NCBI RefSeq assembly: GCF_054482525.1
Contig: NZ_CM137006.1
DNA: 64,000 bases
Strand: one strand, 5' to 3'
Shown here: piece by piece, positions 43,597-45,170 of the stretch
How the letters are laid out: each line of letters starts with the position of its first letter
Position numbering within the stretch: position 1 is the stretch's first letter
Position numbers and translations under genes: made by a program
Notes under the pieces: model-generated
Databases searched by the model: none
Told to the model about the DNA's origin: nothing
The model's input: the letters and a program-made list of their open reading frames with translations, nothing else

Positions 43597-44255
43597 CTTA
43601 CCAGCCGCGCCCTAACAGGCGCACACGATCTGACATTTGCATCCAACTTCGTTACTTACGGCCCGTAAACGGGCTGCCCGGATAGGGAATCGATAACTGC
43701 TCTCCCATTTTATCCTCTTCAAGCTGGTGCTTTATGTAATCCTGTATCTTCGCCGTGTTCTTACCCACCGTATCGACGTAGTACCCTCTGCACCAGAACT
43801 CCCTGTTCCTGTATTTGAATTTCAAATCACCAAACTGCTCGTAAAGCATCAGACTGCTTTTCCCTTTCAGATATCCCATAAAGCCGGATACGCTCATTTT
43901 GGGCGGGATCTCCACAAGCATATGGATATGATCTGCACAGCATTCAGCTTCCAGAATCCGTACACTTTTCCACTCACACAGCTTTCTCAAAATACTGCCT
44001 ATTGCTCTACGCTTCTCTCTGTAGAACACCTGTCTTCGGTATTTTGGCGCAAAAACTATGTGATATTTACAGTTCCATCGGGTGTGCGCTAAGCTCTTTT
44101 CGTTCCCCATTGGGACCCCCTTTTGATTTCTTGTTTGACACTTGCAGTTGCCAGACCGCAAGGTGTTTTAACAAATCAAAAGGGGTTTTAATAACTGGCT
44201 TAAAGCTGAAAGCTTTCCGGAACCCCCAGCCTAGCTGGGGGTTTTCTGTGCACAA
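43597..44255 (-). mobile_element. IS200 insertion sequence (boundaries approximate)
   Basis: tnpA flanked by short 3' tail and 5' leader with IS200-type hairpin acccccagcctagctgggggtt; no terminal inverted repeats, as expected. Confidence 0.7.
43652..44110 (-). CDS. tnpA: IS200 transposase TnpA (HUH Y1)
   Basis: 152 aa from MGNEKSLAHTRWNCKYHIVFAPKYRR, near-identical to remembered E. coli IS200 TnpA. Confidence 0.9.
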   Translation of the reverse strand: MGNEKSLAHTRWNCKYHIVFAPKYRRQVFYREKRRAIGSILRKLCEWKSVRILEAECCADHIHMLVEIPPKMSVSGFMGYLKGKSSLMLYEQFGDLKFKYRNREFWCRGYYVDTVGKNTAKIQDYIKHQLEEDKMGEQLSIPYPGSPFTGRK

Positions 44256-44303
44256 AAACAACGGGCGTGCCATACGCCCGTTTCAATACTTAACGCACAT
44301 GTG
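44255..44303. repeat. Copy A of a ~47 bp terminator-like repeat (AACGGGCGTG..ATACGCCCGTTTCAATA.TTAAC)
   Basis: Direct repeat of 45124-45170 with few mismatches; contains a hairpin. Confidence 0.7.
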
Positions 44304-44748
44304 TTTTGGTTTAGTCATCATCCGGTTATATGTATTTTAGCCAGGAATGGGTTAAACCATTCCTATATAACTAAAAAATTGAAACCTTATTCTCATGTCA
44401 TGCTTATATTCGTCATTATCGTTATATAAAAAGGCCAACCATAATGTTTAGCAAATTGGCACAAAGTAGTATAAAGGCTATGTTTTAATTACAGGATGTT
44501 CAGTCATTTGAATGTATAACATTTTAGCTAAACAAATCTAAAACGAAGTGAATAATTTAATGTTTTCACTAAATCTCATTTTGTTTAATATCTATCGAGA
44601 TTTCTTGCTTTAAATTTTGTTTTATATAAACAATGGTTTTAATTTTTAATTAATTTGTTTTTTTGAGGGGGTAATATACTCATATGCAAAATCAAGAAAT
44701 AAACATCCTAATGAACCATATTAAATACCGTGGGATAAGACATAACAA

Positions 44749-45072
44749 ATGAAGTGGATAGTAATTGACACGGTAATTCAACCTACATGCGGTATATCTT
44801 TTTCAGCCATATGGGGTGATATGAAAATGATCATCTGGTATCAACCTACTATATTTCTCACTCCTGGAAGTATATTTACACCGGTTAAGTCTGGTATTAT
44901 CTTTAAGGATAAAGAATACCCTATTACTATTTATAACATCACACCATTCAACAAGGATTTATGGATTTTACTCAAAAGCAGTCAAGAGTGTCCTCCAGGA
45001 GAAAGCGAAATAACAAATAAATGTTTACATAATAGTTGTATTATAAAAATATGCCCATATGGACTCAAGTAA
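44749..45072 (+). CDS. iraM: RssB anti-adaptor IraM
   Basis: 107 aa from [14 protein letters not shown]-rich; lies between ycgX and the icd fragment as in K-12. Confidence 0.7.
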
Positions 45073-45123
45073 TGGGCTTCATATAAATATGCTCGACATG
45101 CTATTAATAATATCCACATAAAT

Positions 45124-45170
45124 AAAACAACGGGCGTGTTATACGCCCGTTTCAATATTTAACACATGTA
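45124..45170. repeat. Copy B of the ~47 bp repeat, immediately downstream of the icd 3' fragment
   Basis: aaaacaacgggcgtgttatacgcccgtttcaatatttaacacatgta. Confidence 0.7.

Follow-up and report, generated by a model that had tools for sequence, protein, structure and literature searches.

The gene iraM lies between two direct copies of a repeat that is the predicted transcription terminator of icd. These copies, here called T1 and T2, are probably successive generations of the icd terminator that were left by repeated insertion of prophages into icd. In this scenario two insertion scars flank what is most likely the remaining cargo of an ancient prophage, iraM. The product of iraM is an anti-adaptor that protects RpoS from RssB and stabilizes RpoS under PhoPQ control, and the gene is active in the E. 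coli general stress response. The origin of the gene has been described loosely so far, and one paper places it "on the e14 prophage" (PMC4045071). Contrary to that remark, iraM here lies outside the e14 boundary, and its position is probably that of an older prophage scar.

Organization of the iraM locus

The window, that is, the whole 64,000-nt stretch of DNA analyzed, matches PCN033 at 100%. A search for repeats between positions 43000 and 46500 revealed a single strong direct family, 44255-44297 and 45124-45166, with a length of 43 nt, 91% identity, and a spacing of 869 bp. The complete copies, T1 (44254-44303) and T2 (45122-45170), both read on the minus strand, are identical at 39 of 43 positions without gaps, and if one 1-nt indel is allowed, the similarity extends from AAAACAACGGG to CACATGT. 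The hairpin AACGGGCGT-loop-ACGCCCGTT is present in both, at 44260-44282 in T1 and at 45129-45151 in T2. A 15-mer from the repeat occurs in the window exactly twice, compared with 0.1 occurrences expected from shuffled sequences, whereas a 40-mer gives no chance matches. The 64-kb window contains no third copy, and no further relics of T or icd were found elsewhere in it. The original prediction had described direct copies in the same orientation on both sides of iraM, and every element of that description holds. It had also placed the upstream copy against an IS200 end; indeed, the end of IS200C, GTGCAC, finishes at 44253, and T1 begins one base later.

At the left side of the locus, beyond what would be the oldest scar, is ycgX (42927-43331, plus strand), a DUF1398 gene (Pfam PF07166, E 1e-47) that bears this name in the annotation of matching genomes. 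It is followed by a small ORF (43384-43494, plus strand) position-matched to ymgL as annotated in genomes such as that of K-12. Degenerate e14-type arm-like repeats (TTTTGATAC GTTA TTTTATAGC GG TTAACAT...) occupy positions 43504-43544 to the left of T1 and are separated from it by IS200C, an element of about 707 bp with tnpA (43545-44253, minus strand; Pfam Y1_Tnp, E 5e-38). T1 itself, which is probably a displaced icd terminator of an earlier generation, is oriented in the icd sense and has no adjoining icd sequence: a search to its right in the window gave no icd homology, the local score being below the shuffle mean.

The iraM segment (44304-45121, plus strand) is AT-rich and has the appearance of a remnant of an integrated element. 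It comprises the upstream region of iraM, a small ORF position-matched to annotated ymgK (44444-44488, plus strand), iraM (44749-45072, plus strand; NCBIfam NF007393, E 2e-49), and approximately 50 nt of 3' flank. On its other side, T2 is joined to an icd 3' fragment (45175-45338, minus strand) that consists of the last 53 codons and the stop codon and is 92% identical to the icd 3' end; 4 nt separate T2 from the stop codon of this 164-bp fragment. Matching genomes carry it as a partial dehydrogenase in their annotation, and the full icd gene is outside the window. The fragment was displaced by the prophage that now resides in icd and is equivalent to icdC of K-12. This prophage, described here from its icd junction, is lambdoid, has a phage-21-like junction, contains tail genes and ORFs of 1159 and 853 aa, and runs off the window (45339-64000, minus strand). 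The match to phage 21 extends approximately 60 nt beyond the icd fragment, to position 45400.

The repeat as a predicted terminator of icd

Both T1 and T2 yield terminator-like calls on the minus strand, the sense strand of icd, with a 9-bp stem that includes six GC pairs and with a 5-nt loop. The tail after the hairpin is GTTTTATTTA in T2 and GTTTTTGTGC in T1. Folding of the T copies gave energies from -17 to -21 kcal/mol with z-scores between -2.0 and -4.7, and the equivalent sequence is marked as a terminator in the phage 21 genome annotation. T2 is the predicted intrinsic terminator of icd and, judging from its sequence, may also terminate the convergent transcription of iraM. The T1 hairpin of K-12 is damaged, with a folding energy of -10.8 kcal/mol vs. 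-18.9 kcal/mol in the window; hence T1 appears to be decaying, as a relic should.

Phages that integrate into icd carry the repeat

It is established that e14 and phage 21 insert into icd and bring a replacement for its 3' end with them. Phages carry T as well. Phage 21 and approximately 26 other lambdoid phages match window positions 45122-45340, that is, T and the icd 3' end, at 93-95%, with a left boundary that practically coincides with that of the repeat. In these phages, T and the last 164 bp of icd adjoin int and the arm sites. The order in phage 21 is xis, int, three arm-type sites (GTTTTGGGGAAR), the annotated terminator, and a 53-codon icd pseudo-CDS. Since the phages carry T and the icd 3' end beside int, each insertion into icd duplicates the icd 3' end together with T. 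O157:H7 strain F1273 was considered as a candidate for a recent clean loss of iraM, but its match to the motif is a phage-21-type attL copy and says nothing about such a loss.

The attL of e14 in K-12 has a similar anatomy: three TTTTGATAA repeats are followed by a diverged T with a compensated stem (GGGAGCG...CGCTCCC) and then by icd. By their position and by comparison with the annotated sites of phage 21, the TTTTGATAA repeats are putative integrase arm sites. The phage 21 repeat TTTTGGGGAA looks like their arm-type counterpart, and both may be Int sites.

EC6030 has three direct copies of T in a row. The first two flank iraM; beyond T2 come an icd fragment and then a decaying prophage of 12.7 kb, phage-21-like and riddled with IS elements, followed by int and arm sites, and the third copy, T3, adjoins icd. 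In prophage-bearing genomes, the boundary between the displaced icd fragment and phage DNA falls approximately 165 bp inside icd, at about 45338 in the window and at the end of the icd fragment in K-12. The strand-exchange core is not in the repeat, and T lies within the flanking homology.

A long allele with the same boundaries

In 19 genomes, the distance between ycgX and icd is filled by 6.3 kb of DNA. This long allele contains a ymgB-like gene, a variant of iraM (iraM', 80% nucleotide identity), trkG, the end of Rz, an IS903-like remnant, and an ORF of 455 aa that has no family match. The direct repeat known from the window brackets this allele too, at a length of 107 bp and 72% identity (E 1e-12), and the allele keeps both an icd stub and e14-type arms. 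The stub, 13-nt ACATATTCTTGAT, is situated to the right of T1 and corresponds to the last icd codons, which have an identical offset in the gene itself; across the sequences compared, 7 of 1000 shuffles did equally well at any place. The left flank of T2 agrees with the e14 arm region at 41 of 60 positions, a score reached by none of 2000 shuffles.

The same T2 flank was also compared with the left flank of T1, which is uninterrupted in B2 strains and K-12, giving 37 identities in 60 nt (0 of 2000 shuffles as good). The uninterrupted 60-nt T1 flank, in turn, matches the arm region of e14 attL at 38 positions, with 3 of 2000 shuffles as good. T2 of the short allele, the one present in the window, has no significant arm relic. 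By analogy with the long allele, the short one may have the anatomy of an att scar as well.

The trkG gene and the Rz end are phage genes: they are 89.5% identical to lambdoid phages in which the order is Q-S-R-Rz-trkG. Together with iraM', they lie on the strands expected for a phage-21-like orientation at icd. The order of iraM' and trkG in the long allele differs from that in the sampled phages; therefore, either several events or a rearrangement must be invoked.

The iraM segment of the window has 72-80% identity to the corresponding parts of the long allele. Divergence between the short and long alleles amounts to 20-26%, compared with 2-11% for the flanking genes. This level of divergence suggests that the duplication predates the diversification of E. 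coli and favors loss of iraM in the B2 strains considered below.

Phage relatives of iraM

IraM, too, is encoded by phages. Homologs with 54-68% identity are single ORFs that lambdoid prophages carry between the Q antiterminator gene and either the holin or the nanS-p gene; they are antisense to the Q and lysis late genes, and some are directly beside stx2AB. In total, 46 phage records, mostly of Stx2 phages, encode an IraM homolog. In several prophage backgrounds these homologs have the properties of morons, which points to a moron origin of chromosomal iraM. The T motif is absent from the prophage loci with IraM homologs, and so the repeat did not arrive with the moron.

In L004, iraM adjoins an intact, phage-free icd. 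Hence iraM is outside both the current prophage and e14 and belongs to a layer older than the current prophage.

Other members of the family occur outside this locus. IraL of CFT073 has 58.9% identity to IraM (PMC4045071), and the IraM-like ORFs of Stx2 phages have 61-64%. They resemble iraM in being horizontally acquired and prophage-associated but differ in that they occupy other sites, in recognizable prophages or islands, and have no T repeat.

Proposed reconstruction of the insertion history

A likely scenario can be proposed for the origin of the two terminator copies. Phages of the phage 21/e14 type would recombine at a core inside icd, approximately 165 bp before the stop codon, and would bring a replacement unit composed of int, arm-type sites, T, and the icd 3' end. 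Each insertion would join a new icd 3' end with T to icd and push the older unit outward, toward ycgX. Read from the outside in, the window would then contain an e14-type arm relic, T1, the iraM segment, T2, the 164-bp icd fragment, and the present prophage. T1 and the arm relic would go back to an old e14-like element: they would be its attL region, moved outward, with the icd fragment next to T1 deleted. The iraM segment would be what survived of the next prophage, with iraM being its moron, kept as useful. Finally, T2 would be the terminator copy of that prophage, itself displaced together with the icd fragment by the present one. We infer both the number and order of these events and the arrival of iraM with that particular element.

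Besides the lack of an icd stub and an arm relic in the short allele and the gene order of the long one, two observations run against this reconstruction. The first is that none of the alleles examined yielded an integrase or excisionase remnant, either inside the T1-T2 interval or left of T1: tblastn with phage 21 Int and Xis gave nothing in the ycgX-icd region of the window or in the long island, and Pfam and NCBIfam searches revealed no recombinase in the ycgX-icd DNA. The second is that the phage homologs of IraM carry no T and, as noted, are at 54-68% identity.

The original prediction had suggested that iraM lies on a small remnant element bounded by att-like repeats at the icd hotspot. 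The foreign remnant and the derivation of the repeats from att regions are retained in the present reconstruction, but the motif is not the crossover site. If it were, a small iraM element would have inserted into the icd terminator itself, with the 47-bp motif as its att site and T1 and T2 as the attL and attR cores. Such an insertion would agree with the clean polymorphism exactly at the repeat, where B2 strains have one copy with the T1 flank on the left and the T2 flank on the right, and with the lack of icd sequence beside T1 in the short allele. However, phages that use icd already explain the duplication of T without T as a core, and the 107-bp repeat of the long allele, with the icd stub on one side and e14-type arms on the other, has the anatomy of a displaced attL. 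Moreover, we observed no element with a motif-specific integrase and no integrase remnant. Direct insertion into the terminator is therefore an unlikely origin of the repeat pair.

Another possibility is that the terminators are alike because of local tandem duplication or gene conversion, without phages, and that iraM came separately. Insertion of DNA can duplicate a terminator that adjoins convergent genes, and each copy could have its own role, T1 serving ycgX-ymgL and T2 serving icd and iraM. Still, this possibility leaves unexplained the phage-borne sequence with the same left boundary, the e14-type arms at both copies, and the phage nature of the cargo, and we consider it quite improbable.

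IS200C at terminators

On the minus strand, the T-tract of T1 is immediately followed by the left end of IS200C. IS200C is missing at this site in K-12 and in B2 strains, and in different genomes it occurs beside T1, beside T2, or beside the single copy; 23AR0303 has a tandem IS200 pair at T. The left end of IS200C also abuts the T-tracts of unrelated intrinsic terminators at carB and sbcB/plaP. Thus, IS200C adjoins T1 because T1 is a terminator with a T-tract, and the repeat was not created by IS200C.

The closeness of T1 to the IS200C end, one base away, and the occurrence of the IS beside T1, T2, and the single copy might be taken to mean that the repeat is IS200-related, either a duplication made by IS200C or a part of the IS ends. 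This interpretation is already refuted by K-12, EC6030, and most other genomes, in which both copies are present without IS200, and abutment to unrelated terminators makes the terminator the target, not the product; we give it hardly any credence. To our knowledge, IS200/IS605 elements make no long target duplications. The proposal that the repeat is itself a target or recombination site is right in its first part for IS200C but not for other elements, whereas recombination between the copies is plausible.

Copy number of the motif

With a 71-bp query around T2, the motif was detected in 5417 of 5426 complete E. coli genomes, at a median of 2 and a maximum of 4 places. The best matches are at icd, and plasmids account for 26 of 10733 places. 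This genome-wide search, which had been suggested as a check against a dispersed REP-like element, demonstrates that the motif is locus-specific. That the motif, being short, GC-rich, palindromic, and intergenic, is a REP/BIME-like or other common palindrome with two copies flanking iraM by chance is already refuted by its median of two and maximum of four copies per genome, against tens to hundreds in the REP/BIME class, and can be practically dismissed.

Two further repeat classes were considered and rejected. Target-site duplications of transposons are exact and 2-14 bp long, whereas the repeat is imperfect and 47-107 bp long, and the DNA between its copies has neither a transposase nor terminal inverted repeats. 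The attC sites of integrons were rejected because the motif lacks RYYYAAC/GTTRRRY ends, as judged by eye, and no integron integrase is nearby.

Presence and loss of iraM

Of 5426 complete E. coli genomes, 3929 have a detectable iraM gene and about 28% lack it, including classical B2 uropathogens, an absence for which the scar scenario accounts. One iraM-less locus is that of GN02323, composed of ycgX, ymgL, one copy of T, and icd; its left flank is that of T1, and the copy is identical to T2. A single-copy ymgL-T-icd junction matching over at least 80% of its length is found in 1036 genomes, and the best 60 of these 1036 matches are all 100% identical. Among the matches listed are CFT073, UTI89, 536, S88, APEC O1, Nissle 1917, ATCC 25922, and the type strain. 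The named strains are classical members of B2, and exactly the iraM segment and one copy of the repeat are absent from them. The segment between the repeats is thus present or absent as a unit, a point that the original prediction had proposed to check, with B2 strains having ycgX, ymgL, one copy, and icd. K-12 has both copies of T and no IS200. The original prediction had linked the presence of both copies in K-12 to iraM being clearly ancestral; the copies are there, but the ancestry of iraM in E. coli is not settled by them.

Two routes of loss can be described. The first one, recombination between IS200 copies, is documented. The order in 266917_2 is IS200, T1, ymgK, iraM, IS200, T2, icd, with both IS copies in the same orientation and at equivalent points, while RIVM_C037884 has IS200, one copy of T, and icd. 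Because the flanking proteins of the two genomes are identical, iraM was lost in that lineage by IS200×IS200 recombination; this loss, traced in one lineage, used the two flanking IS200 copies. IS200 joined to the single copy is found in 216 genomes; 161 have the IS200-T1-iraM junction.

The second route, T1×T2 recombination, is plausible. Over its whole length the single copy has the T2 type, as would be expected of a never-filled site and of an emptied one alike. We lean slightly toward loss, with the B2 single-copy site having been emptied by recombination between T1 and T2. On the other hand, replacement of the icd 3' end and T by phages can homogenize the copies.

Relation to known systems

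The closest parallel is the insertion of phage 21 and e14 at icd (icd/icdC), with the same site, the same orientation, and the same duplication of the icd 3' end and terminator; T2 and the icd fragment of the window are the attR-side product of such an insertion. Unlike these prophages, however, the pair of T1 and T2 brackets approximately 820 bp with iraM and no recognizable prophage, T1 has lost its icd fragment, and no integrase remains. The pair would thus record an older round of insertion, not the current one.

Cryptic prophage remnants that keep morons are a second parallel, an example being trkG, a moron kept in the cryptic prophage Rac. They share with the iraM locus AT-rich cargo of phage families and att-derived direct repeats. 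The iraM locus differs in being cut down to one functional gene, which acts in the RpoS network of the host, and in having terminator copies as boundaries. A third parallel is the accretion of islands at tRNA genes and ssrA, where direct repeats are likewise arranged in series and older, more degraded elements are farther from the target. Here, by contrast, icd is a protein-coding gene, and the surviving repeat is a terminator rather than a tRNA 3' end.

A search of the available literature found nothing describing the repeat around iraM. New here are the terminator as a part of the duplicated unit, the position of iraM between two generations of that unit, the longer, trkG-bearing allele with the same boundaries, and the documented routes of iraM loss. 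The locus clearly illustrates how reuse of a single attachment site accumulates copies of a terminator and leaves phage genes stranded in the chromosome. It refines the known mechanism of icd insertion and adds no new principle.

A broader and rather speculative extension is that the icd site operates as a conveyor, on which each prophage pushes older remains outward behind a fresh terminator and useful morons become fixed. The ymgL-ycgX pair might then be stranded phage cargo too, and copies of T might allow B2-like lineages to shed iraM and so retune RpoS control. The reading of ymgL-ycgX as cargo comes from the e14-type arms in the T1 flank and from the place of DUF1398 among phage gene families. 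The same might hold for the ymg/blu cluster, still further to the left. The ycgX family is also found in lambdoid prophages, and paralogs of ycgX occur in prophage late regions. A search of genome contigs with YcgX found four paralogs, all away from icd, and the YcgX homologs looked up in E. albertii and Escherichia sp. are paralogs residing in prophages or at other loci.

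Location of iraM relative to the prophages in icd

The iraM gene was previously placed on the e14 prophage (PMC4045071). This placement is contradicted by two observations. By coordinates (window 44749-45340; comparison loci L001 and L004), iraM lies outside the e14 boundary, which is marked by the displaced icd fragment. It is also found in strains with an intact, phage-free icd, as in L004.

The prophage that now occupies icd (window 45341-64000) has a phage-21-like junction and long tail ORFs on the minus strand, and an ORF for a GNAT acetyltransferase (45687-46244) is located close to its boundary. 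In strain EC6030, insertions of IS1 and IS2 together with deletions have cut down the phage-21-like prophage (L035, 2311-14875) to 12.7 kb, and mcrC and an AAA ATPase gene were gained near the attR side. This prophage is a snapshot of decay toward an iraM-like remnant.

The long allele, a 6.3-kb version of the iraM region, was shortened in EC42405 by a deletion of about 435 bp (L032, 5990-6010 versus L033, 5870-6310) that takes out ymgL, the icd stub, and T1, one of the two direct copies of the icd terminator (T1 and T2) flanking iraM. This is a further independent deletion at the iraM locus. A 455-aa ORF of the long allele (L030, 13466-14833, minus strand), located between an IS903-like remnant and e14-type arm repeats, has no match in Pfam or NCBIfam.

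Phage-borne relatives of iraM and ycgX

In many Stx2 and Stx2c phages, an ORF of the IraM family directly adjoins stx2AB on the opposite strand (L011-L013, about 3200-4100; phage matches H288-H309), and only few phage records carry its annotation. Such a putative phage-borne RssB anti-adaptor next to toxin genes could be relevant to the stress physiology of EHEC. Paralogs of ycgX (DUF1398), with 70-80% identity, occur in two settings (L024-L027 and L017-L020): lambdoid prophages, with lysis genes on one side and Nu1/terminase on the other, and a separate chromosomal site beside yedE/yedF in other Escherichia. This distribution fits a phage origin for ycgX too.

Terminator repeats and IS200C

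IS200C (window 43545-44253) has its left end at the T-tract of T1. The same arrangement, with the T-tract of an intrinsic terminator directly beside the left end, is observed at all four sites, T1, T2, carB, and sbcB/plaP (window, L021, L037, L038, and L043 compared), the tract being taken on the strand on which the terminator is functional. The constancy of this junction suggests that the tails of terminator hairpins are the IS200C target. Strain 266917_2 carries IS200 copies at 2240-2960 and 3800-4510 of L021, and in strain 23AR0303 a tandem IS200 pair is present at one terminator copy.

The 5-nt hairpin loop of the repeat is GTTAT in some genomes and ATAAC in others, with an identical stem (L003, 2963-2979; the T2 copy of L021; and L035, 14943-14965, versus window 45129-45151). 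The palindrome is polymorphic for inversion of its loop. In searches of E. coli genomes, the terminator motif was matched 26 times and iraM 8 times in plasmid-typed records.
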